A stretch of 32,000 nt of DNA from Paenibacillus algorifonticola (GTDB lineage Bacteria > Bacillota > Bacilli > Paenibacillales > Paenibacillaceae), in contig NZ_LAQO01000003.1 of assembly GCF_000971975.1 (NCBI RefSeq), forward strand, positions 175,181-207,180, given 5' to 3'. The position numbers were made by a program, and so were the translations under genes. Below are positions 4,825-27,944 of this stretch, in pieces; within the stretch, counting starts at the first letter, position 1, and each line of letters begins with the position of its first letter. Under the pieces are notes generated by a model. That model was not told where the DNA came from. It made no database searches and was given only the letters and a program-made list of their open reading frames with translations.

Positions 4825-4866
4825 ATGTTCTTGTCTTTTAAGGTACTATGTTCTTGTCCTCCGACA
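4825..4866 (-). repeat. solo transposon-end-like repeat, copy A (GGACAAGAAC family)
   Basis: Read on the minus strand: TGTCGGAGGACAAGAACATAGTACCTTAAAAGACAAGAACAT. That is a TGT terminus followed by two direct GACAAGAAC sites about 23 bp apart. The terminal 19 nt recur at 17561-17579 and 27926-27944. The layout resembles the Tn7 terminus TGTGGGCGGACAA. Confidence 0.6.
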
Positions 4867-4872
4867 ACCGAC

Positions 4873-4877
4873 ACACA
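4873..4877. repeat. 5-bp target-site duplication ACACA (tnsA-proximal copy)
   Basis: ACACA immediately precedes the TGT terminus at 4878. The identical pentamer follows the ACA terminus at 15035-15039. Confidence 0.8.
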
Positions 4878-5018
4878 TGTCCAATGACACAAAACAACCC
4901 CCAATTCACTTCCAGAATTTACTGGACATATCAGTGAATTGGGGGTATATTTGTGTCAAGATAAAATGACACAAATATACCCCCGAATTAAGAGTTCGTC
5001 ACAATACTTCCCTCAAAT
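4878..5018. repeat. tnsA-proximal transposon end with four TnsB-type binding repeats
   Basis: Motif copies are TGACACAAAACAACCCCCAATT (4885-), its inverted copy (4933-4958), TGACACAAATATACCCCCGAATT (4967-) and TCGTCACAATACTTCCCTCAAAT (4996-5018). Confidence 0.8.
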
Positions 5019-5083
5019 AAAGAGTTTTCTTACCGCTGATCAGCGGCGACAAGATGAACAATTTACGAAAATGAGGTGAAAGC

Positions 5084-5749
5084 GTGTACACACCAATCCC
5101 CATGAAGCGCAGCACTCGATACGGTAATAATTATTGGGAAGCATTCAGCGTCAAAATGAATCGAGATGTACGATTTTTTAGTGACCTGGAATACGATCAT
5201 TGGATTCTCGTTGAAGCTGATTCGGACATTGTTGCCTTCTGTGAACAGCCCAAGCGAATACAAGTCGAATGGCAAGGAGAATTGGTAGAATCCATTTTTG
5301 ACATGTGGATTCAGCGAATGAACGGAACGGAGTGCTTCTTGGAAGTGAAATACGCTTCTGAACTTGACCCTAACGACAAAAGATTTTCATCAAGATCTTA
5401 TAAACAAACGAATGCTCAAGCAAAATGGTGCCAAGAAAATGGTTACAATCATCTCATTCGAACCGATAAAGACATCCGATCAAACTTGATTTATTTGAAT
5501 AATTTGAAAACTATCATACCATACATTCAACAACGCCCTGTTCTTGTGGAAACGGTCCAATATCAAATTATGAATGTTCTAGGTAAGACCTCCAAAACCA
5601 CGATAGAAGGGATAGAACAAGCGCTTCCGGTTCTTGGTCGTCAACGGATTCGGGAAACTGTGTATCAGCTGATTTATCGGGGAATGATTGACTCTACAAT
5701 CACTCACAAACCTTTAGATTCAAAAACAGAGGTGTGGAGCAATGCCTAA
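5084..5749 (+). CDS. tnsA: TnsA-like transposition endonuclease
   Basis: 221 aa with GAGGTGA before GTG 5084. Restriction-endonuclease-like E/D/K triad context (SDLEYDHW, SIFDMWI, FLEVKY), as in Tn7 TnsA. Its 3' end overlaps tnsB by 8 nt. Confidence 0.85.
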   Translation: MYTPIPMKRSTRYGNNYWEAFSVKMNRDVRFFSDLEYDHWILVEADSDIVAFCEQPKRIQVEWQGELVESIFDMWIQRMNGTECFLEVKYASELDPNDKRFSSRSYKQTNAQAKWCQENGYNHLIRTDKDIRSNLIYLNNLKTIIPYIQQRPVLVETVQYQIMNVLGKTSKTTIEGIEQALPVLGRQRIRETVYQLIYRGMIDSTITHKPLDSKTEVWSNA

Positions 5750-7706
5750 AAAAAGATGGATTGAGAATGAGAAAATTGATCCGGCACATTTAGATACATC
5801 AATCTGGCCGATTGTTCATGAAGATAAATTGGATTCTAATGACAAAGAGACTTTTTTTGCGAGAAAAAAGGCCATCGACATGTATATGAAGAATGAGCGC
5901 CCACTCCATGAAATTAGCGCCGTTACACTCATTGACAGGAAAGATATATTGGCATTTGTGAAGAGATGCCTTTCTTACGATGACCAAGGTAGAATCTGGG
6001 GTTATAGAGCACTTATTCCCAGGAAACGTTTAAAACAATATGAACGCAAGTCTCTACCTATATTATCAACGCAGGACGAGCTATCCAAAATGACGGGCGC
6101 TTTTACATTGCTATTAAAGCAGTATCCTACCGTTAAAGAAACGATTGACAATTTGTATTTGGGTAGAAATACAAAACGAGAAGTACGATCCCCTAAAATT
6201 AGTGTGAAAGATCTTCATGGTAAACTCTTGGATGCCTGTACGAAGGCAGGTATTACATCCAGTGAATATCCATTTATAAGTGGAGATTTAGGAAAACGGT
6301 CGTTATATCGTTATGTCGATATTCTTGAACAATGGCATTTTGGCGAAGCCGCTAAACGCTACGGTGAGAATGCAAGTCAAAAAGCAAGACATACAGGAAT
6401 AGGCGCTCCGAATGCCCCTTCACCAGTTAGACCTTTGGAACGTGTTCAATTTGACGGACATCGAATAGATTGTTCAATTGCCATCGTGTTCCACACGCCA
6501 GAAGGCGACGAAATTGTGGAGGTAATGGATCGCCTTTGGTTACTCTGCATCATTGATGTTGCGACAAGAATCATCTTGGGTCACCATCTTAGCTTTAATA
6601 AGGAGTATTCCGCTAGCGATGTACTGCATTGCATTAAAAAAGCTGTCATGCCCAAAGAAGTGCTTCAATTAACAATCCCAGGATTAACTTATCACCCGAA
6701 TGGCGGTTATGCATCAAGGCTGTTTCCTGAAATGGAATGGGCTTTGTGGGATGAGTTTCATCTTGATAATGGTAAATCTAATTTAGCGAATCAAGTCAGA
6801 GATCGACTAAAACGAACCATAGGTTGCTCGGTTAATGCTGGTCCTGTGGCATTGCCAATGAGAAGAGGAATAATTGAAAGGTTTTTCGAAACGTTAGAAG
6901 AAAATGGGTTCCATCGTCTAGTAAACACAACCGGCAGCAACCCAAAAGATCCACGACGGCAAGATCCGGAGAAAAAAGCAGTGAAATATCGGATTACCGC
7001 TGAGCACATAGAAGAACTGACAGATGTACTCATATCCAACTACAACGGAACGAAACATGAAGGAATAAATCTTTTGACACCGCTGCAATGTTTAGAACAA
7101 CGTTTAAACAGAGGTTTACTTCCACGAGTTATGACTGAGGAAAAGAGACAGGAAATCGCTTTTCTTTCTCTTGCAGCAAATCGAGTTGTTCAAGGAAACA
7201 TTAGCCAAGGAAAGCGTCCTTTTATTTATTACGAGGGGACTGAATATCGTAATGAAGTATTATCACGAAGTCCTGAACTTATTGGTACCCCATTAGATCT
7301 ACTGGTGAATATCGACGATCTCCGAGTAATTAGAGCATTTTTGCCTGATGGAAGTGAGTTTGGCACACTTACGGCCAATGGAAAATGGGGTATTACGCCG
7401 CATTCACTTCAAGTTAGAAAACAGATAAACAAATTAAAAAAGTTGAAAATACTGCATTTCACCAATTACGATGATCCAATTGAATGCTATCACAGATATT
7501 TGCAAGAACAGGCTAAAACGAGCCGATCGGATCGTAATCGGTTAGCTGCACTTCAACGAAGTAAAAAAAAGGAGAAAGAGAAATTGGTCTCCAAAGAGGT
7601 TCTTCCTGATGATACTCAGAGCGAAAATGTTGTTCCATTAATAGAAGCATCCACTAAAAAGAGTATGAATATAGATCGAAAACGGTTTAGGACCATTACT
7701 TATTAG
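5742..7706 (+). CDS. tnsB: TnsB-like DDE transposase (retroviral-integrase superfamily)
   Basis: 654 aa. Candidate DDE residues sit in VQFDGHRID, FHLDNGKSN and GIIERFFETLEE, with about 105 and 36 aa spacing, similar to Tn7 TnsB. Basic C-terminal tail. Confidence 0.88.
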   Translation: MPKKRWIENEKIDPAHLDTSIWPIVHEDKLDSNDKETFFARKKAIDMYMKNERPLHEISAVTLIDRKDILAFVKRCLSYDDQGRIWGYRALIPRKRLKQYERKSLPILSTQDELSKMTGAFTLLLKQYPTVKETIDNLYLGRNTKREVRSPKISVKDLHGKLLDACTKAGITSSEYPFISGDLGKRSLYRYVDILEQWHFGEAAKRYGENASQKARHTGIGAPNAPSPVRPLERVQFDGHRIDCSIAIVFHTPEGDEIVEVMDRLWLLCIIDVATRIILGHHLSFNKEYSASDVLHCIKKAVMPKEVLQLTIPGLTYHPNGGYASRLFPEMEWALWDEFHLDNGKSNLANQVRDRLKRTIGCSVNAGPVALPMRRGIIERFFETLEENGFHRLVNTTGSNPKDPRRQDPEKKAVKYRITAEHIEELTDVLISNYNGTKHEGINLLTPLQCLEQRLNRGLLPRVMTEEKRQEIAFLSLAANRVVQGNISQGKRPFIYYEGTEYRNEVLSRSPELIGTPLDLLVNIDDLRVIRAFLPDGSEFGTLTANGKWGITPHSLQVRKQINKLKKLKILHFTNYDDPIECYHRYLQEQAKTSRSDRNRLAALQRSKKKEKEKLVSKEVLPDDTQSENVVPLIEASTKKSMNIDRKRFRTITY

Positions 7707-7719
7707 CGGAGGGAGAGTC

Positions 7720-8730
7720 ATGGTAAATCAACCTAGTCCCATCGAAAAAAGTTCTGCCTTGTCACCGCCAAGACCGTATGTGGCTCAAGGTACTCATCCC
7801 ATTGAGACCGGAAGATACCTGCTGCCGACGAACGAAATTATTCGTATGTATGATACCGTTGCCCAATGGATCACAAATCGTTCACCCGGCGGGATGATTT
7901 ACGGCAGACCGAGACTCGGGAAATCAAGAGCCATTACGTATCTTTCATACGAACTTCCGAATGAATTCGGTAATCATCTCCCGATATTTACTATGAAATG
8001 TCGACAATACAAACAACCGAGTGAGAGTAGCTTCTTTGAAGATATATTGAATGATGTAGGGCACGCTTTGCCCTTTAACGGAAAAGCCAATTTAAAAAGA
8101 GATCGACTATATCGATACTTTGTAGAAAAGGCTGAACGCTCAGCTCAAAAACGTATTATTTTGTTCATCGATGATGCTCAACGTCTTTTTGAAATTCAAT
8201 ATGGCTGGTTGATGGATATTTACAACGAACTTGATAGTTCAGGCATTAGCATGACAGTTATCTTGGTTGGACAGGAGGAACTTGTTCATCAACGCAGCGC
8301 ATTTATTCAAGCCAAGAAAGCTCAGATCATCGGAAGATTTATGGTTCACGAATTCAATTTTAAAGGAATAGTCGACGCCGATGATATGGCTGTTTGTTTG
8401 TCCGGTTACGACAATATTTCAGAATATCCTGAAAATAGCGGATGGTCCTTTACACGTTACTTTTTTCCAGATGGGTTTGATCATCATGGATGTCGTCTTG
8501 AGAATTGTGCAAAGGATCTATTTAGCATATTTACGAATCTTCGCAAAGAACACGGACTTACAAGAGCAACTGAAATACCAATGCAATATTTAACGCTAAC
8601 AGTTGAAAATGCACTTCGTCATTTTGGAGCAAATGGAGAGGATCTTCACTGGCTGAACAATGAGCAATGGAAATCCTCGATTACTAGCTCTGGTTACATT
8701 GAAGCCGAGACATACCACGAAGTGGTATGA
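7720..8730 (+). CDS. tnsC: TnsC/TniB-like AAA+ ATPase transposition regulator
   Basis: 336 aa. Walker A GRPRLGKS and Walker B ILFIDDAQ. GGAGGGAG RBS. Lies between tnsB and tniQ. Confidence 0.85.
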   Translation: MVNQPSPIEKSSALSPPRPYVAQGTHPIETGRYLLPTNEIIRMYDTVAQWITNRSPGGMIYGRPRLGKSRAITYLSYELPNEFGNHLPIFTMKCRQYKQPSESSFFEDILNDVGHALPFNGKANLKRDRLYRYFVEKAERSAQKRIILFIDDAQRLFEIQYGWLMDIYNELDSSGISMTVILVGQEELVHQRSAFIQAKKAQIIGRFMVHEFNFKGIVDADDMAVCLSGYDNISEYPENSGWSFTRYFFPDGFDHHGCRLENCAKDLFSIFTNLRKEHGLTRATEIPMQYLTLTVENALRHFGANGEDLHWLNNEQWKSSITSSGYIEAETYHEVV

Positions 8731-10193
8731 GAAAACTAAAATGTGTTTTTCCTGAGTATAAAGAAATACAGAGGCAATTCACTTGGAATCCGGACTGGAT
8801 CTCAGATTACGAATCACCTTGGGGAATTTTCGAAAAATTTAAGTACGCAAATTGCGTTACGGCAAAAGATATTCTGTTCCAATTCGGTAATGAGGAAGTA
8901 TTAAGTAGAAGATCCATAAGTTACAGTCAACAGAATTGCAATCTAATTGATATGCCCCGATTGAACAATGAAAGTATTACAAACATCTTGAAATTAGACG
9001 TAAAAGCTAGAAATCAAGAGTTTATGAACCTGATGGCATTTGTTCCGAGACATCGTCCTTATCAAGATTTTTTTCGCAAACAGCTTACATTCTGCTTAAC
9101 GTGCATGAAGAAAGGCTTTCACAGCATATTAAACCAATTCTCGTTAATTCATGTATGTCCTATCCATGGAGATCCATTGTCGGACCGCTGTCCGATATGC
9201 GATAAATCTTATCCGTATCGTCTCGGTGATGATGCGTTAACTGCACCGTTTCAATGTTCCTGTGGCCATCAATATTTAAGCGGTACTTGTAATTATTCGG
9301 AGTTATGGGAATCCAAACCCGTAATCCAATCAACCGAAGTGGCTGATTGGATATCCATGCACTATAAACAAAAGATCAATTTTAATGATCTCATTTTGTC
9401 CAGTGAAATTTCGTTTCGTAATTTACAAGGTGGCATGGATTTTATTTTGCAGGCAGTCGATCCAAGTTATAAATCAATTCAGCCCGAAAAACATTATGTG
9501 GTTAAGTCGCCGTCAAGAATCATGGTTTACGGAAATTATAATAAAGAATTCGAATCCATTAGAGAGTCTGGCAGTGATGAGAGGTACCTCAGATTCATTG
9601 AAAAAATAAACGAACTGATTTACCAGAGCAATAGAAGCACCTTCTATGCGATTGCTAAACACTTGAGAGCTACAATCCTTCGGGATCATATCGCTTGTGT
9701 TAGAAAGTTAGAACTGTTTGATACCAAATGCCCTTATGCGTTTGCATATGTAAATTGGAAAAAATTTATTGAAGGACATACACATACGCGACAGGTAGAC
9801 AATAAATATCGGCCTTCAAGAGAACGAAGCAAATATGAAATGGAGTTCATCTCAAAACAAGACGACTCGGCATTATGGGATATTATCACCAAGTGGGAAT
9901 ATGGCAAGCCCTATTGGAAGTATAAACATCTTACAGCAACAATTTGGATTATCAACAGAGTGCTTGCTCATTTCGCTCTCAATCATTTTTACAGCTGGTT
10001 AGAAATCGCTAAGAATACGGAATCACTTGGCTTGGAGTTTGATAATGTTCCTTTTCGTTACGAAAACGTTCCGTTTTTTCTTATCAAACTACCTCGTGAC
10101 AATGAAAAGGAACTAGAGTTCCATTGGTGGCTTAAGGACCATGATCAAAACAAGCCCCATTTGGTGTGCCCATTCAAAACTGGTTTCGGATAA
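8727..10193 (+). CDS. tniQ: TniQ/TnsD-like target-selection protein
   Basis: 488 aa; its ATGA start overlaps the tnsC stop. Cys/His cluster CLTCMKKGFH...VCPIHGDPLSDRCPICD, typical of the TniQ/TnsD zinc-finger region. Size is close to Tn7 TnsD. Confidence 0.75.
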   Translation: MRKLKCVFPEYKEIQRQFTWNPDWISDYESPWGIFEKFKYANCVTAKDILFQFGNEEVLSRRSISYSQQNCNLIDMPRLNNESITNILKLDVKARNQEFMNLMAFVPRHRPYQDFFRKQLTFCLTCMKKGFHSILNQFSLIHVCPIHGDPLSDRCPICDKSYPYRLGDDALTAPFQCSCGHQYLSGTCNYSELWESKPVIQSTEVADWISMHYKQKINFNDLILSSEISFRNLQGGMDFILQAVDPSYKSIQPEKHYVVKSPSRIMVYGNYNKEFESIRESGSDERYLRFIEKINELIYQSNRSTFYAIAKHLRATILRDHIACVRKLELFDTKCPYAFAYVNWKKFIEGHTHTRQVDNKYRPSRERSKYEMEFISKQDDSALWDIITKWEYGKPYWKYKHLTATIWIINRVLAHFALNHFYSWLEIAKNTESLGLEFDNVPFRYENVPFFLIKLPRDNEKELEFHWWLKDHDQNKPHLVCPFKTGFG

Positions 10194-10288
10194 TCTGTTC
10201 GTAGTGAAGTTATGAATAAGCTCGAACTACAGCAGCTAATTTCAAGCCATCTTATGGTTTCCTAATTTCTAAATATGGAGCGTATGGT

Positions 10289-10954
10289 ATGGATATTGAC
10301 TTAAACAAATTGCGTGATACCGGATGGATTTTCTTAAGGGGAGAGAAGTCACTGAAACAAGATAATCTACTAAAACTAGCAAACACCTTGGGTGAACCAA
10401 TTCCATCGAGGGCAACTGGTACCCTAGTTGATACACTAATGCCTGTAGATACGAAGAAGGCAAGACCAAATTCATTGAGCGCATTATATGGGACAGGTCA
10501 TTTTCCATTACATACTGATACTGCTTATAAAAAAGTTCCAGCAAGATATATTTTATTGTATGCAAAGCAAATTGAGGGTGAAGTTCAGTCAACAACTTTA
10601 ATAGATCTTGAGAAAATTAAGTTTTCTCAAGATCTTGAAGAGCGTTTAGATAGATGTTTATACACCATTATAAATAGTCGGCATAGTTTCTTGGCTACTC
10701 TACGTGGATATAGCAATACTCACAGAAAGAACTGGATCAGGTTCGATACAAGCTGTATGCTCGCAACGAATAAGGAATCAACTGTTACAATAAACGAGCT
10801 TAATGAATCGATCTCCAAAGTTACATTGGATACAATAAACTGGACTCAAGGCGATATATTGATCATAGATAATTGGCGTTGTTTGCATGGACGAGGAGTA
10901 GCTAATTCGAGCGCCAAAGCAGTTCGGGTTATAGAAAGAGTTACAATACAATAA
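10289..10954 (+). CDS. TauD/TfdA-like Fe(II)/2-oxoglutarate dioxygenase (transposon cargo)
   Basis: 221 aa. HxD facial-triad motif in GHFPLHTDTAY, and a distal His/Arg in IIDNWRCLHGRG (the family's DN....H.R pattern). Short for the family. GGAGCG RBS. Confidence 0.6.
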   Translation: MDIDLNKLRDTGWIFLRGEKSLKQDNLLKLANTLGEPIPSRATGTLVDTLMPVDTKKARPNSLSALYGTGHFPLHTDTAYKKVPARYILLYAKQIEGEVQSTTLIDLEKIKFSQDLEERLDRCLYTIINSRHSFLATLRGYSNTHRKNWIRFDTSCMLATNKESTVTINELNESISKVTLDTINWTQGDILIIDNWRCLHGRGVANSSAKAVRVIERVTIQ

Positions 10955-10971
10955 GAAATACGGAGGCCATT

Positions 10972-11865
10972 ATGATAGATTACGAATCCTTATGGAACAA
11001 ATCTAAATTATACATGGGAAAAGCAATTAACAAACGTGACGAAGGGGATTTCGCTGAGTTTCAACTCTGGGCATCTCTTTTTTTGGAACTCTTAGGGAAG
11101 GCTGCATTAGCATATAAGCACCCGTCATTGATTGTTGATCCCAACACTCCACACGGATTCTTGGTTGCTATTAACGAGTCTCAGAGCACAGATTTTAAGA
11201 CAATTACAGCAAAAACAGTATTTGAACGCCTTCAAAACTTAGTAAATGTCCCCCGTTTTGATGCTGATACAAAGAAATTTTGCATGACTCTAGCAAATCA
11301 CAGAAACGAGGAATTGCACTCGGGAGCACTTCCTTTCGTAGGAATGAGTATGGACCACTGGCTGCCAAAGTTTTGGGATGTATGTAAAATGCTTCTTGAG
11401 TTTCAAAACAAATCGTTACGTGATCTGCTCGGACCAAGAGAGGCAAGAGCGACAGAAGAGATTATTCAAGCTCGGTCCGTCAGTTTGAAGGCGATAATTG
11501 AAGCTCGAATTCAGAGACATCGTACAGAAGTGAGGATAAAATACGAAGGTCCTGTTCCTCGTGATGTGTTGAAAGTGATCCCTGTATTATCAGATGATGA
11601 TCAGGAAACCACTACATGCCCTTCTTGCGGCAGCCACGCTGTAATATACGGAGAAATTTTAGATGAAGGACCAGAGTATATCGACGAGGAAGAGCCGTGG
11701 ATAACATACCAGGATAATCAATATGAAATCACGTCATTAAAGTGTAGAGTTTGCGATTTGAAACTAAATAGTTTAGACGAGGTAACGGCCGCCGGCATAG
11801 ATCATACGTTTGAGAAAACAATTACTATTGAGCCTGATTATGAACCCGAATACGGAAATGACTAA
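10972..11865 (+). CDS. HEPN-motif protein with C-terminal zinc ribbon (transposon cargo)
   Basis: 297 aa; starts 17 nt after the dioxygenase gene, with an ACGGAGG RBS. The helical N-terminal domain carries LANHRNEELHSG, i.e. the R-N-x3-H (Rx4-6H) HEPN ribonuclease signature. The C-terminus has paired CxxC (CPSCGSHA...CRVCDLK). Confidence 0.55.
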   Translation: MIDYESLWNKSKLYMGKAINKRDEGDFAEFQLWASLFLELLGKAALAYKHPSLIVDPNTPHGFLVAINESQSTDFKTITAKTVFERLQNLVNVPRFDADTKKFCMTLANHRNEELHSGALPFVGMSMDHWLPKFWDVCKMLLEFQNKSLRDLLGPREARATEEIIQARSVSLKAIIEARIQRHRTEVRIKYEGPVPRDVLKVIPVLSDDDQETTTCPSCGSHAVIYGEILDEGPEYIDEEEPWITYQDNQYEITSLKCRVCDLKLNSLDEVTAAGIDHTFEKTITIEPDYEPEYGND

Positions 11866-11998
11866 TATGCGGCTTAATAAAATGAATGAGATAATTTAGA
11901 TTTGGGATTATTATTTTAAGAAATGGTGTTCAATAGCCTGAATTTGTTTTTTCGTAAATTGATTGGTACATTCACCAAAATAACTAGAGGTGCATACA

Positions 11999-13777
11999 AT
12001 GAGCCATATTCGTATAGAGGGCATACAAGTCCAAAATTACAGGTCATTTGGCCAAGCAGTAACAGTTCATTTTCCTAATAGCGATTTTAAAAAACCAGTA
12101 GCAATAGTCGGGTACAATAATGCAGGTAAGACGAATTTTCTTAATTCAATTTTGTACGGAATAACAGAAAAGTATGTGACTAAAGACACCTTTACAATTA
12201 ACGACTTTCACAAAAGGAAATTTAGCAATATACCTAAAATTGTAACTAAAGTAAGCAGTAGTAGCGAGCCTAAAGTTGAATGGGGGACTGCAAATCTCAC
12301 TGGATATCATTTTTTAGAAATCAAACTCGATGGTCATGAAATAGAGAGCACAAAAATTAGTTCCTATGATGACTACAATCAAAGTAGCAGGAGTTCTAGC
12401 GCTTTCGGTGCAGCAAAGTATTTTAAAATATTCTACATAAACTTCCATGAAATAAAAAAAGAAATATCGACAAAGAAAACGAGTTGGGGAAACCTGTCTT
12501 CTTTTCTTGCAAAGCATATCAGAAGCATAGTGGATACAGATAATATTATGGTTGGAAAAAAAGATGTTTTTAAAGGAGAAGTAAAAAGCGCGACTGATAA
12601 AGTTCTTGCAGACTCTAAATTAAATGAATTTCTTGGAAAAATACAAATTAATTATTCAACAAATTTAAGGCAGAATCAGTGCCACATTGAATTTGGATTA
12701 CCTGATTATGAAGATATATTTTTAGAGATGATGTTTAAAGTGGGTCTTAACGGAGACATGGATAATCTGGTGCCAATCGACCATTTCGGCGATGGTTACA
12801 TTTCTATGTTTGTTATGGCAGTAATTCAAGCAATAGCAGAGAGCAACGGAACCGACAAGTGCCTGTTTTTATTTGAAGAACCTGAGAGCTTTCTACATGA
12901 AAATCACCAAGAATATTTCTACAAAACCGTTCTTTGTGGATTAGCGGAAAAGGGACATCAAGTAATTTATACAACACATTCTGATAAAATGTTGGATATC
13001 TTTGATACCCGAGGCTTGATTCGTTTTGAATTTGATGAAATAACCAAACAAACTGTTCTGAAATACAACAAACATGATAAAGAAATTTTTGAAGATTCAG
13101 ATGAAGAAGCACTTTCTGAAATAAAAGACTATTACAATTATATTAAGCTAATTGATCCAAATCTTAATAAAATAATATTCAGTAAAAAAGTGCTACTAGT
13201 AGAAGGTCCCAATGACCTGATGACGTATAAAGAAATTATCAGAAGAAATGTATTGGATATCACTGCTGATGATAAGTATGCTGCTACATATTTGAATTTT
13301 AATAATATCTCAATAATTCCACATCATGGTAAAATTACTGCTTCAATTTTAATCAAGCTCTGCAAACATTTTGGAATTGATTATTTTGTGATTAATGATT
13401 TCGACTTTGAACAAGATTTTGTCTCAGAACTCACCTTTACATCAATCGATGAGTTGCAAAAAAGCCATCTATATAACGATGGATTAGAAGAAATCATTGT
13501 TTTTAATTCCAAAGGTGAAGCAATGAATGCTAAAACCAAACGTTCAATGATAACAACAAATTGGAGATTAATTTCGGAATCATCTCCTGCGAAAATACAT
13601 TTTAACATTCCAAAACTAGAGTCAGTTATAGGCTATGACTCTAATGACAAAAGCAGTGTTGGAATTTGGAACACACTTAAAAAGACCTCTCATTTTGGAG
13701 AGGAGATCTTCCCAGCAAAACTTCAAGAATTCCTTGAAATAACTCAGATCAAGAAGAAGCATGAGGGACAAAATTAA
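11999..13777 (+). CDS. OLD-family nuclease (ABC-type ATPase + Toprim) (transposon cargo)
   Basis: ORF 11990..13777. AGAGG favours ATG 11999 (MSHIRIEGIQVQNYRSF). Walker A GYNNAGKT, Walker B/D-loop LFLFEEPESFLH and H-loop YTTHS, with a long insertion between A and B as in OLD/GajA. The C-terminal Toprim has LLVEGPND and VINDFDFE. Confidence 0.8.
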   Translation: MSHIRIEGIQVQNYRSFGQAVTVHFPNSDFKKPVAIVGYNNAGKTNFLNSILYGITEKYVTKDTFTINDFHKRKFSNIPKIVTKVSSSSEPKVEWGTANLTGYHFLEIKLDGHEIESTKISSYDDYNQSSRSSSAFGAAKYFKIFYINFHEIKKEISTKKTSWGNLSSFLAKHIRSIVDTDNIMVGKKDVFKGEVKSATDKVLADSKLNEFLGKIQINYSTNLRQNQCHIEFGLPDYEDIFLEMMFKVGLNGDMDNLVPIDHFGDGYISMFVMAVIQAIAESNGTDKCLFLFEEPESFLHENHQEYFYKTVLCGLAEKGHQVIYTTHSDKMLDIFDTRGLIRFEFDEITKQTVLKYNKHDKEIFEDSDEEALSEIKDYYNYIKLIDPNLNKIIFSKKVLLVEGPNDLMTYKEIIRRNVLDITADDKYAATYLNFNNISIIPHHGKITASILIKLCKHFGIDYFVINDFDFEQDFVSELTFTSIDELQKSHLYNDGLEEIIVFNSKGEAMNAKTKRSMITTNWRLISESSPAKIHFNIPKLESVIGYDSNDKSSVGIWNTLKKTSHFGEEIFPAKLQEFLEITQIKKKHEGQN

Positions 13778-13805
13778 AAAAATTAACAGAAGGGGCAAAG
13801 AAAAA

Positions 13806-14927
13806 ATGTCAACTTTTCACAAAACTTTCGATGAAGTGAACGAAGACGATTTGAAATTTTTTATTGAAAGTGGAGCTACAGAAGGGTTACAGCTCGAATT
13901 TAAAGAAACGATTTCAAATAACATTAGTCTAGTTGAAGAGGTGGCTGCATTTGCAAATACACAAGGTGGAGATCTATTTATTGGAGTGAAGGAAAGGGAA
14001 GGAACTCCGATTGAGGTTACCGGCATTGATATCAACCCCGATCAAGAAATTTTAAAGTATAAGCAATGGGTAGAAACTAATACTGATCCAGCTCTTACAA
14101 ATATATTGTACAGACATATTTCCTTGACCGGTGGAGGGCACGTTATCCATATACGCGTACCAAGGAGCTGGAATGGGCCACATATGGTTAAGAATTTTAA
14201 GTTTATGTTACGTACAGCCTCTGCTAAAGTCCCTGCAGGTACATCTGATATTAGAAGAATGATGAATGTTAGAGATCATTTTCTTGATCAATACAATCGA
14301 TTTCGTGTACAACGTATAGAAAAAACATTAAACATATATAAACAAGAGACGCCCTTTGTACTAGTTCACTTCTTACCGACTTCTGCTTTTAATATTGAAT
14401 CAAATTATCCTATAGTCGAAAGGCGAAGTAGTATTAATCTTTCTGTGTTAGGTGGATCAGGATATAACCAGGGCATAAATGCCCATGGATTATACTATCA
14501 ATCTATAGGAACCAATGGTTATAGGGGGCATACCCAAATATTTCGGAATGCTATTATAGAACAAGTGTCAAATATGTCGTTTAATTATCGTAAAAGCTAT
14601 GAAGAGCCACGTAAAGAGTTTTTTAGCACTACACATTTTGAAAATTCACTAAGAGATTCAATTCTTAATCAAATAAGGAATTATGAACAGCTGAACATGC
14701 AAGATCCCTTTTACATATTCGTTAACCTAATTGGGGCGAGTGGAGTAATAGGACATTCATATGGGGCATATTACATTTCAGCTCCTCAAGCAATCGATGA
14801 TGATTTACTTCAGCTGCCAGAAACTATGATTGATCCGATTGCAAATCTAGATCTAGAAGTGATTTTATCAACGATTATTAACTATTTATGGAATGCCTTT
14901 GGGTTTGTAAGCAAACCAGAACAATGA
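13806..14927 (+). CDS. Schlafen/AlbA_2-domain protein with unknown C-terminal domain (transposon cargo)
   Basis: ORF 13761..14927. GAAGGGG favours ATG 13806 (MSTFHKTF), 28 nt after the OLD gene stop. N-terminal EGLQLEFKE...VAAFANTQGGDLFIGVKE is the AlbA_2 (Schlafen-like) signature. The ~230-aa C-terminal part is unassigned. Confidence 0.7.
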   Translation: MSTFHKTFDEVNEDDLKFFIESGATEGLQLEFKETISNNISLVEEVAAFANTQGGDLFIGVKEREGTPIEVTGIDINPDQEILKYKQWVETNTDPALTNILYRHISLTGGGHVIHIRVPRSWNGPHMVKNFKFMLRTASAKVPAGTSDIRRMMNVRDHFLDQYNRFRVQRIEKTLNIYKQETPFVLVHFLPTSAFNIESNYPIVERRSSINLSVLGGSGYNQGINAHGLYYQSIGTNGYRGHTQIFRNAIIEQVSNMSFNYRKSYEEPRKEFFSTTHFENSLRDSILNQIRNYEQLNMQDPFYIFVNLIGASGVIGHSYGAYYISAPQAIDDDLLQLPETMIDPIANLDLEVILSTIINYLWNAFGFVSKPEQ

Positions 14928-15034
14928 CACAAATGTGCCCTCAATCATTTAGTTGATTGAGGGCACATTTGTGTCAAAACCCTTATTGAGGGTATTGTTG
15001 AGTCGTCATTGGGAGGGATTTGAGTCATTAGACA
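14925..15034. repeat. distal transposon end with four TnsB-type binding repeats
   Basis: There is a perfect 23-bp inverted pair: TGACACAAATGTGCCCTCAATCA (14925-14947) and its complement (14954-14976). Two more minus-oriented copies follow (14985-15008 and 15008-15034), the last ending in the ACA terminus. Confidence 0.8.
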
Positions 15035-15039
15035 ACACA
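15035..15039. repeat. 5-bp target-site duplication ACACA (distal copy)
   Basis: Identical to 4873-4877 and directly abuts the ACA terminus. Confidence 0.8.
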
Positions 15040-15141
15040 AAAGAAACCAGTCGTGGTAAGGCTTTGAGTCTATTTATATACATATGTATAAAATACGGGT
15101 TTTGTGAAAATGTCTGTGAGAATCCGCGTAACCACGCGGGT

Positions 15142-16212
15142 TTATCGGTCCATGTTATCTACAGCTTTCCTCATCTCTTCATCTGTTAGATGTGTATATA
15201 TCATTGTTGTTTGTATCGATGAATGTCCTAATTGATTTTTTAATCTCGGGACATCATTGTTCTCTAGATGGTATCGTGTTGCGAAAGAATGTCTTAGTGA
15301 ATGTACGGTTAAAGCTGGTTTCCCAAAAGCAGTTGCATATTTTTCGATTAGTTTTTCAATGGATCTTTGCGTTAAGCGCCGGCTTTTTCCTTTACGGCCG
15401 ATAGGAGCTGCAATAAACAAAAAGGGTTCCAGTTTTTCTGGTTTGTATCTTGATTCTCGAATTTGTAGATAACTTTCCACATCTAATAATGCTTGCTTGC
15501 TGAAGTAAACGTATTGTTCTTTATTGCCTTTGCGTATCACTCGTACGATAGCTTTACTTAAATCCAGATCTTCCAGGTTAATGCCGGCAACCTCAGAAAG
15601 CCTAAGTCCGGAGCCTAAAATAAGAGATACGATCGCTGTATCCCGTTCACGATTCATCTGATGGAAATGATATATCCGTTTATTCTCTTTATTTACTTCT
15701 CCGAAATCATGGGCTACAAATTGTCTAAACGCCTCAAATTCGTCTTCTCTGAGAATTTTCCCTTCAATACGGTTCGCAATGGTTTCCTGGCTTTCCTTGA
15801 CGACATTTAAATCCATTTTGGCCATGACATTACGCTGAATATATGGCTTTAGCTCAGCGGTCTCAGCCTTGTTCTGCAGGTAATCAAACAAGGATTTCAG
15901 TGACGATAACTTGCGATTAATCGTGAGATTTGTATTACCCAGCTGATACTCTAAAAAAGATAAAAAATTCTCTACTTCACGGATCGTCAGCGTTTCTAAT
16001 GAAGCTAAACTAATCTCTGTACGGCTGGCCGTTGTTAAGTTTTCTGCAACCAACCAGTCAAAAAATATAATGTAATCATGGCAATAATTAAGAAGCGTTG
16101 TTGGAGAAAGCTTGCGTTTACGGCTATCAATAAATTCAGTCACGAACCACGGCAATTGATTTATTTTTTCATCTATGCGATTCATGTAATGAAGCTTCAT
16201 TTGTTTGTCCAT
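15142..16212 (-). CDS. tyrosine site-specific recombinase, XerS-like architecture
   Basis: 356 aa with a GGAGG RBS. C-terminal catalytic signature: SGLRLSE (Arg), LRHSFATRY (H/R), GHSSIQTTMIYTH (His, Tyr). Length and N-terminal layout (LPWFVTEFIDS...SPTTLLNY) resemble streptococcal XerS as I recall it. Confidence 0.8.
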   Translation of the reverse strand: MDKQMKLHYMNRIDEKINQLPWFVTEFIDSRKRKLSPTTLLNYCHDYIIFFDWLVAENLTTASRTEISLASLETLTIREVENFLSFLEYQLGNTNLTINRKLSSLKSLFDYLQNKAETAELKPYIQRNVMAKMDLNVVKESQETIANRIEGKILREDEFEAFRQFVAHDFGEVNKENKRIYHFHQMNRERDTAIVSLILGSGLRLSEVAGINLEDLDLSKAIVRVIRKGNKEQYVYFSKQALLDVESYLQIRESRYKPEKLEPFLFIAAPIGRKGKSRRLTQRSIEKLIEKYATAFGKPALTVHSLRHSFATRYHLENNDVPRLKNQLGHSSIQTTMIYTHLTDEEMRKAVDNMDR

Positions 16213-17228: not shown

Positions 17229-17452
17229 ATCTTGCTCGACAATCACTGATGTTGGCATCATTCTTTATAAAGAAAGGTCACTAAAACTTTCTTTTTATAT
17301 TTGAAGATGCTTTAAAAGGAACCTTATTTGCGAATATATATTGATTGCGGTTCCAGTTTTTCAAATCGCCATAGTTACGCTATCCTGACCGTCAGCTAAA
17401 TGAATTAGCTGGCGAAAATCGATTAGACATATGCCTAATCGGTAATCGGACT

Positions 17453-17579
17453 ATATTCTTGTCCATTACGGCAATCGGTACAAGTTCTTGTCCTTGGCTC
17501 GGGACACGAACTTGCGATAAAACAAAAAAAGCCGCTAAATTAGCGACTTTCAATGGGAATATGTTCTTGTCCCCCGACA
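17453..17579 (-). repeat. solo transposon-end-like repeat, copy B (GGACAAGAAC family)
   Basis: On the minus strand it reads TGTCGGGGGACAAGAACAT..., with further GACAAGAA(C/T) sites at 17482-17493 and 17453-17464 and an inverted site forming a palindrome (17482-17513). About 100 bp aligns with copy C at roughly 90% identity by eye. Confidence 0.6.
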
Positions 17580-17584
17580 TCTAC

Positions 17585-27812: not shown

Positions 27813-27844
27813 TACGGTAGTTAATAGAAAAACGTGTTAATACT

Positions 27845-27944
27845 AAGTTCTTGTCCTTGGCTCGGGACAAGAACTTATACCGATAAAACAAAAAAACCGC
27901 TAAAATAGCGACTTTCAATGAGACAATGTTCTTGTCCCTCGACA
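27845..27944 (-). repeat. solo transposon-end-like repeat, copy C (GGACAAGAAC family)
   Basis: On the minus strand it reads TGTCGAGGGACAAGAACATTG... It includes the palindrome AAGTTCTTGTCCTTGGCTCGGGACAAGAACTT (27845-27876) and the same internal CGCTA-loop-TAGCG hairpin plus A/T run as copy B. Confidence 0.6.

Follow-up and report, generated by a model that had tools for sequence, protein, structure and literature searches.

A Tn7-like transposon of Paenibacillus that probably homes to the flank of a chromosomal dif site

Taken together, our results indicate that a Tn7-like transposon in Paenibacillus algorifonticola is quite probably a functional cut-and-paste element that homes, by means of its TniQ protein, to the chromosomal recombination site dif. 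The element lies in a 32,000-nt stretch of contig NZ_LAQO01000003.1, here called the window, and all coordinates without a contig prefix are window positions. It was compared with relatives at other loci (L identifiers) and across a sample of 74 Paenibacillus genomes (G identifiers, its own 7.5-Mb genome being G000). We refer to its family as family A, and to two sister families as B and C. Following the convention in which the right end is the one upstream of the tns genes (PMC11406308), the tnsA-proximal end is the right end and the tniQ/cargo end the left. The element and its ends are positioned as follows.

4878 to 15034, + strand: Tn7-like transposon of family A, 10,157 bp, with TGT...ACA termini
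4873 to 4877, no strand: left copy of the target-site duplication, ACACA, identical to the 5-mer at 15035-15039
15035 to 15039, no strand: right copy of the target-site duplication, ACACA, by direct reading
4878 to 5018, + strand: tnsA-proximal (right) end, with sites at 4885-4906 (+), 4937-4958 (-), 4967-4988 (+) and a weak one at 4997-5018 (+)
14925 to 15034, - strand: tniQ/cargo (left) end, facing dif, with sites at 14925-14946 (+, inverted), 14955-14976 (-), a weak one at 14984-15005 (-), and 15006-15027 (-)

With a slash marking each junction, the left one reads ...CCGACAACCGACACACA/TGTCCAATGACAC..., the element starting at 4878, and the right one ...GAGTCATTAGACA/ACACAAAAGAAACC..., the element closing with ...GTCATTAGACA at 15034. 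The inverted TGT/ACA termini abutted by ACACA, on which the original prediction was built, can thus be read directly. To map TnsB-type sites, the whole window was scanned with a weight matrix derived from five clear motif copies at a threshold of at least 12. Eight places reached it, seven of them no more than ~140 nt from a terminus; the internal match at 10570 is probably due to chance, and the terminal copy at 15006-15027 (-), which is one base short, was found by eye and is unscored by the matrix. The predicted four copies of a ~22-bp motif per end were about right in number, with three strong sites and one weak at the tnsA end and two strong and two weak at the opposite end. One site is inverted at each end, and three tightly spaced direct sites (offsets 7, 29 and 58) are found at the tniQ/cargo end, not at the tnsA end. 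The element therefore has the TGT...ACA termini, the several TnsB sites per end and the 5-bp duplication of a Tn7-like transposon. Its GC content is 37.8%, compared to 41.3% in the flanks, and it is present as a single copy in its own genome.

Next to the right end are four tightly packed core genes, overlapping by 8 nt (tnsA/tnsB) and 4 nt (tnsC/tniQ).

5084 to 5749, + strand: tnsA, 221 aa, endonuclease subunit (PF08722, 33.1 bits, cut-off 26.5; NF033179, E=1.8e-10)
5742 to 7706, + strand: tnsB, 654 aa, a very divergent DDE transposase (phmmer match to ShCAST TnsB 7svw)
7720 to 8730, + strand: tnsC, 336 aa, AAA+ adaptor (AAA_22, 52.4 bits; TniB, 21.6 bits, just missing the cut-off of 22.4)
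8727 to 10193, + strand: tniQ, 488 aa, TnsD-sized target selector (PF06527, 22.6 bits, under the 27-bit cut-off)

A TnsA subunit, a TnsB DDE transposase, a TnsC/TniB-type AAA+ adaptor and a TniQ-domain selector are all present. The sequence of TnsA contains the catalytic motif E36...D73...E86-V-K88, and that of TnsB the catalytic residues D238, D342 and E378. TnsB aligned with ShCAST TnsB over residues 256-629 (E=6.9e-8) and had no Pfam match at E<=0.001, rve reaching only E=0.06. TnsC has GRPRLGKS as Walker A and IDDAQ as Walker B; a search of PDB sequences with it gave no match. For TniQ, the zinc-finger Cys/His columns are invariant, and an AlphaFold2 model (pLDDT 74.6) gave as best Foldseek matches TnsD (8v32_J, probability 0.99) and ShCAST TniQ (8bd5_Q, probability 1.00, TM-score 0.57 on the target), with E-values of the best matches of only 0.014-0.026 and an alignment to TnsD of at most ~250 columns. 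Comparison with the copy at L023 yielded dN/dS values of 0.10 for tnsA, 0.12 for tnsB, 0.06 for tnsC and 0.15 for tniQ, so the core genes are under purifying selection. These values, the retained catalytic motifs and the uninterrupted open reading frames agree with the proposal that the element is intact and functional. The same holds for its proposed dependence on a single TnsD-like selector, as there is one tniQ of TnsD size. Also as predicted, no tnsE homologue was found among the element's genes in Pfam, NCBIfam and PADLOC scans, and a search for a CRISPR-like array, as part of a CRISPR targeting module, found none. By every structural feature tested, the element is classed as a Tn7-like member of the heteromeric transposases; the hallmarks of Tn7 itself (a glmS site, the right end toward the target, and tnsE) were not found, and it is not classed as Tn7 proper.

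Three relatives of the element were found: an intact copy in Paenibacillus baekrokdamisoli (L023), a copy with a frameshifted tnsA in CP133017.1 (L030), and a scrambled remnant in Paenibacillus sp. PL91 (L024). The core of the window copy is 94.7-94.9% identical in nucleotide sequence to those of L023 and L030, from the TGT through the end of tniQ, after which the cargo is wholly different. The junctions are AATGA/TGTCC...GGACA/AATGA in L023 and TCCGA/TGTCC...GGACA/TCCGA in L030. Three different 5-bp duplications around the same termini place the ends of the element exactly at 4878 and 15034, as in the original prediction of a complete transposon delimited to the base pair, and mean that the three copies are independent insertions.

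It had further been expected that homology between copies would stop at these two positions. While the element's ends were borne out, homology does continue past both, reaching 4821 leftward in L030 and 15113 rightward. The leftward extension arises because the window copy and L030 both abut the end of a transposon of a second family, and the rightward one because every copy abuts dif; the homology beyond both ends is common target context rather than element sequence. In L030, removal of the element and one copy of its duplication restores an intact family-B terminus, GTCATCCGACA (...GTTCTTGTCATCCGACA), which we regard as an internal reconstruction of an empty site for family A.

The block that every copy abuts on its right is the following.

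15080 to 15113, no strand: candidate chromosomal dif, ACATATGTATAAAA-TACGGG-TTTTGTGAAAATGT, 34 bp, dyad-symmetric

It consists of two inverted 14-nt arms, symmetric at 10 of 14 positions, around a 6-nt centre in which the positions that vary between species fall. Across most Paenibacillus genomes, and in some other families of the order as well, the block at 15075-15114 shows 90-100% conservation, whereas its surroundings vary and its neighbouring genes are unrelated between species. We found its 26-nt core, CATATGTAYAAAATACNNGTTTTGTG, with at most two mismatches in 71 of the 74 genomes, 68 of which carry it exactly once, the rule being one copy per chromosome; a reversed control had no matches. 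The exceptions are three genomes with two or three copies and three with none, one of the latter being 63% complete. In closed genomes the candidate dif lies opposite dnaA, at a separation of 49.7% of the chromosome in both G013 and G018, ~50% in G014, ~52% in G017 and ~46% in G002. On the element's own 386-kb contig (C3), GC skew, computed in 10-kb bins, averages +0.10 as far as 190 kb and -0.085 beyond it; the cumulative skew peaks in the 180-190 kb bin and the candidate dif is at C3:190,261, with the switch resolved to ~10 kb. The block is thus located at the terminus of replication, and we infer from its symmetry, copy number and position that it is the chromosomal dif. No dif of the Bacillus subtilis type was found in the element's own genome at up to six mismatches. 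The AAAA-N6-TTTT architecture resembles that of streptococcal difSL.

A XerS-family recombinase scores over the NCBIfam cut-off in all 74 genomes, usually encoded 150-300 kb from the candidate dif, and probably serves this site. The window holds a second such gene, outside the transposon.

15142 to 16212, - strand: second xerS-family gene (NF003462 XerS, 388.9 bits, cut-off 267)

It lies ~30 nt from the candidate dif, shares 41% identity with the core xerS (C3:379,879-380,928), and keeps the catalytic R, H-x-x-R, H and Y. A xerS gene is likewise beside dif in G009, G018, G074 and G084, and in G013 and G021 the copies are truncated. Together, xerS and dif may form a mobile module. As a separate observation, the genomes with more than one dif core are G036, G015 and G084, where some of the two or three copies have one or two mismatches; extra copies would be compatible with elements whose integration through Xer recombination duplicates the site. 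The dif of Paenibacillus appears to be non-canonical, with XerS as its probable recombinase, and we found little on this in the literature searched.

The link between the element and this site is seen in all three family-A copies. The last base of the element is 46 nt from the CATATG of dif in the window, 44 nt in L023 and 52 nt in L030, and the orientation is constant, with the tniQ/cargo end toward dif. The left flanks are a family-B end in the window and in L030 and another sequence (of the GTGTATGACACT type) in L023, while the right flank is always dif. The solo family-B end left of the window copy is as follows.

4827 to 4866, + strand: solo end of family B (...GTTCTTGTCCTCCGACA), a TGT...ACA-type end 11 nt from the transposon

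No remnant of a family-B protein was found left of it. The newer insertion displaced it from dif.

The sister families show the same association. Homologues of TniQ were found in 13 of the 74 genomes, most of them belonging to family B, and in 12 of the 13 dif is on the same contig at a distance of 0.2-9 kb, the 3' end of the gene pointing toward it. Family-B ends, which read TGTCGGAGGACAAGAAC, are 39-60 nt from dif in at least seven loci. Protein identities between families B and A (46% for TnsB, 46% for TnsC, 33% for TnsA and 28% over ~400 aa for TniQ) point to shared ancestry. G062 carries Tn7-like ends on both sides of dif in mirror image (L027, contig C167, 3700-3900), each with its tniQ toward dif: a family-A-like end (...GTCATTAGACA) 40 nt from the CATATG arm, and an end of a third family, C (TGTCTAATGAC...), 49 nt from the GTTTTGTG arm. 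Four more distinct ends, 44-53 nt from dif, came from metagenome contigs searched by pattern. Altogether, in genomes of 5-8 Mb, more than 15 independent ends lie 39-60 nt from a 34-bp site, and their orientation is fixed. The comparative evidence from family-A copies and related ends, all at 39-60 nt from dif, thus shows insertion that is specific in both site and orientation.

Other targets were considered. A search beside the tnsA end had been reported to find no conserved gene end, and indeed none lies within ~450 nt; the conserved target was nonetheless missed, as it is beyond the opposite end. The statement that the element is not beside glmS is correct, its flanks being a PBP-type carboxypeptidase gene and xerS/dif. 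We rejected the 3' end of xerS as the target, since the conserved site has unrelated neighbours in most species and, in two of the three copies, dif has no xerS next to it. An RNA gene near tnsA was likewise rejected as the target, with no tRNA or tmRNA gene and no Rfam family found.

By the Tn7 paradigm, TniQ would mark dif and TnsC would assemble beside it. TnsA and TnsB would then excise the element and insert it ~40-47 nt outside the CATATGTA arm with a 5-bp stagger, in one orientation with the tniQ/cargo end toward dif, which would stay intact. Because dif survives, later arrivals can insert between it and the residents, and elements stack outward; such stacking would account for the solo family-B end 11 bp left of the element. 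TniQ is probably the reader of dif, and the element is probably still mobile.

Several observations weigh against this reading. The predicted empty site with a single ACACA did not materialize: joined flanks were found in none of 60 relatives, the exact empty junction (at most three mismatches) was absent from all 74 Paenibacillus genomes, and metagenome contigs did not yield the exact junction either. The tnsA of L030 is frameshifted. The spacing to dif is looser than that of Tn7, with the duplication starting 40-52 nt from CATATG at family-A-type ends, and the conventional left end faces the target, the reverse of Tn7 at glmS. The mostly helical C-terminal half of TniQ is covered by no Foldseek match and has no recognisable DNA-binding fold. 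In addition to its two XerS genes, the genome encodes XerD (C9:106,123), which scores above the curated threshold, and has a XerC-like gene; Xer action on the candidate dif is presumed. Finally, a Brevibacillus laterosporus element (L031, CP033464.1), whose TniQ is 27% identical, has no recognisable dif nearby; neither it nor three more distant elements with two TniQ genes (L032-L034) has a copy of the Paenibacillus dif core at up to seven mismatches. As to the empty site, the same interval of the closest relative (G013), from the carboxypeptidase gene to dif (L017 1452-16074), holds 14.6 kb of ordinary accessory genes (APH, TetR, FAD monooxygenase, MFS, AraC, a beta-glucoside PTS operon and ptsI) with no transposase. 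The dif flank is hypervariable.

The strongest alternative retains the homing but has TniQ dock on XerS bound at dif, whether host- or family-B-encoded, instead of on naked DNA, much as 'res hunters' of the Tn5053 family require a res site occupied by resolvase. Family B carries a 351-aa XerS-like protein, encoded divergently from tnsA (L025:3692-4747, - strand, and also in L026, L028 and L029), and in L028 the gene lies between the element's two ends. Its Arg-I, the first His of its HxxR (His-II) and its His-III are replaced by L, R and L, while the Tyr and the fold are kept. The protein has probably lost recombinase activity and been co-opted to find dif, which hints that contacts between recombinase and dif matter in this clade. 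The protein recalls TnsF of Tn6022 (PMC10293859). The presence of XerS throughout the genus, a loose 40-52 nt spacing that would suit a protein bridge, and the C-terminal half of TniQ without a known DNA-binding fold all point the same way. Family A, however, has no recombinase-like gene, and TniQ proteins of TnsD size usually bind DNA directly (PMC10293859). The TniQ profile also shows no similarity to XerS-like proteins, and the idea that the C-terminal half of TniQ derives from a recombinase was dropped when hhalign gave a probability of 0.2%. We therefore regard docking on XerS as possible, at well under even chances. A wider proposal is slightly more tentative still: that dimer-resolution machinery addresses this whole Paenibacillus Tn7-like clade, with TniQ recognising XerS on dif, family B carrying its own disabled XerS and family A using that of the host, and the polarity signal through TnsC being reversed relative to Tn7.

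Alternatively, the element could be a recent fossil, rightly delimited but no longer mobile. It is present once per genome, its tnsB, tnsC and tniQ are too divergent for Pfam thresholds, the tnsA of L030 is broken and the PL91 copy is heavily rearranged. Against this, the duplication is perfect, the four open reading frames are intact with their catalytic residues, purifying selection on them is strong, the core is ~95% identical across species while the cargo differs, and a single-site element would be expected to occur once per genome. Loss of mobility therefore seems unlikely to us.

We also considered that the target is the ends of resident Tn7-like transposons, closeness to dif being inherited from the residents. 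Each of the three copies does have another element's end 0-11 bp from it on the tnsA side, and the CP133017.1 insertion sits inside a family-B terminus. But the resident ends differ in sequence, being twice of the family-B type and once, in L023, of the GTGTATGACACT type, whereas dif is constant; that the left flanks differ and the right one does not counts against resident ends as the target. Moreover, family-B, family-C and metagenomic elements are at a like distance from dif with nothing between, and stacking beside an intact attachment site is expected of Tn7-like elements. This explanation is very improbable. Least probable of all is that there is no sequence-specific homing, the terminus being simply a tolerant hypervariable region or the object of a TnsE-like termination preference: the hypervariable dif flank, the 14.6 kb of accessory genes in G013 and the solo ends scattered in the window would fit it, but the clustering of more than 15 independent ends at 39-60 nt from dif with fixed orientation, and the lack of a tnsE homologue, do not.

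Homing to dif through TniQ, the reading we prefer, invites comparison with known systems. The element shares with Tn7 its TnsA/TnsB heteromeric transposase, TnsC AAA+ adaptor and TniQ-domain selector of TnsD size, and its TGT...ACA termini with several 22-bp TnsB sites per end and a 5-bp duplication. As with Tn7, insertion has a single orientation and a defined spacing from a conserved site that stays intact, and elements stack there. It differs in that its target is a non-coding recombination site at the terminus and not the 3' end of an essential gene. The right end of Tn7 faces glmS, whereas here it is the left (tniQ/cargo) end that faces the target. The spacing of ~40-47 nt is looser, there is no TnsE, one TnsB site is inverted at each end, and TnsB, TnsC and TniQ are under the Pfam cut-offs. 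The 'res-site hunters' Tn5053/Tn402 (TniA-TniB-TniQ) also insert beside a dimer or multimer resolution site, in one orientation and dependent on TniQ. Unlike the element described here, which has TnsA and lies at chromosomal dif, they lack TnsA, transpose replicatively with their own resolvase, and target plasmid res sites to which serine resolvases are bound. Elements that integrate by Xer recombination (IMEX, of the CTX-phi type) likewise have dif as their chromosomal landing place, but they integrate within it and duplicate it, whereas this element inserts beside dif by a DDE transposase, with a 5-bp duplication.

Elements of the Tn6022 type use TniQ together with TnsF and target comM (PMC10293859, PMC11014353). 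They resemble our system in combining a Tn7-like core with a degenerate, tyrosine-recombinase-like targeting protein, which here is found in sister family B only. TnsF, however, is a zinc finger with a partial recombinase and targets the inside of comM, whereas the family-B protein is a full-length look-alike of XerS whose target would be the presumed site of XerS itself; family A has no such gene. Insertion sequences of the IS1202 family (ISAjo2 group) target dif and pdif (PMC10132070). They too have a single orientation and a constant, short separation from Xer sites, including chromosomal dif, but they are single-transposase elements of 1.5 kb that lie 5 bp from the XerC arm in Acinetobacter, with no TnsABC/TniQ and no cargo. 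In full-text searches, which covered literature outside subscription journals, no Tn7-like or TniQ element was reported to home to dif, and the text of a survey of Tn7 target selectors has no mention of dif, Xer sites or Paenibacillus.

Between tniQ and the left end, the window copy carries four cargo genes.

10289 to 10954, + strand: short TauD/TfdA-like Fe/2OG dioxygenase, 221 aa (PF02668, E=2.1e-14)
10972 to 11865, + strand: 297-aa protein with an N-terminus like DUF3644/HEC-08 (PADLOC HEC-08, E=5.4e-7; DUF3644, E=2.1e-6)
11990 to 13777, + strand: OLD-family ATPase/TOPRIM nuclease, 595 aa (AAA_15, AAA_21, OLD-like_TOPRIM; PADLOC Old, E=2.3e-33)
13761 to 14927, + strand: Schlafen/AlbA_2-domain protein, 388 aa, overlapping the OLD gene (PF04326, E=6.7e-16)

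The C-terminus of the 297-aa protein is zinc-ribbon-like, with weak zinc-ribbon matches, and the Schlafen/AlbA_2-domain protein matches no PADLOC model. The cargo is probably a changeable set of defence genes, here comprising OLD nuclease, Schlafen-like, TauD-like and DUF3644-like proteins. In L023 its place is taken by genes for an 811-aa ABC-type ATPase, a beta-lactamase-fold protein, a PIN_12 protein and a GNAT acetyltransferase. The cargo of L030 (11792-16741) includes, besides a PIN_12 protein, an entire GerA-type spore germinant receptor operon (GerA, spore permease, GerAC), an unusual load for a Tn7-like element.

Further relatives and solo ends were noted in passing. Repeats of family-B-type ends are found in the window at ~17434-17584 and ~27840-27944, where no transposase is close by; their matches in G009 are multi-copy. 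In the Brevibacillus laterosporus locus, 9 nt separate the end of the full tnsABC-tniQ relative from a 64-bp miniature element (L031 6017-6090) that is nothing but a pair of inverted ends (TGTCTGGTGAC...GTCATTCGACA). The distant elements with two TniQ genes come from sequencing-run assemblies (L032/L033 4308-11821, L034 3849-11527); two long TniQ-family genes follow tnsABC in tandem and the elements adjoin CBASS-like genes (SAVED, E2/JAB) or SIR2-HerA genes. They may be dual-selector elements. Relatives of tnsB-tnsC with 64-68% nucleotide identity were found on megaplasmids of the Bacillus cereus group and on a plasmid of Paenibacillus rhizovicinus, the latter copy (L036) being degraded.

Tn7-like elements are studied and engineered for single insertions, in one orientation, at a chosen safe site. 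As a target, dif is well suited: a short non-coding sequence, conserved in the genus, it occurs once per chromosome and needs no neighbouring essential gene. With four proteins, ends of ~150 bp and a 34-bp site, the element would be a compact system for finding out how TniQ reads a site. It makes testable whether TniQ needs a resident recombinase, and how the polarity of the ends is set when the 'wrong' end faces the target. For Paenibacillus, homing of this kind would account for a dif flank built up as a stack of transposon ends and defence cargo; islands at the terminus can therefore arise by transposition, besides Xer-mediated integration.

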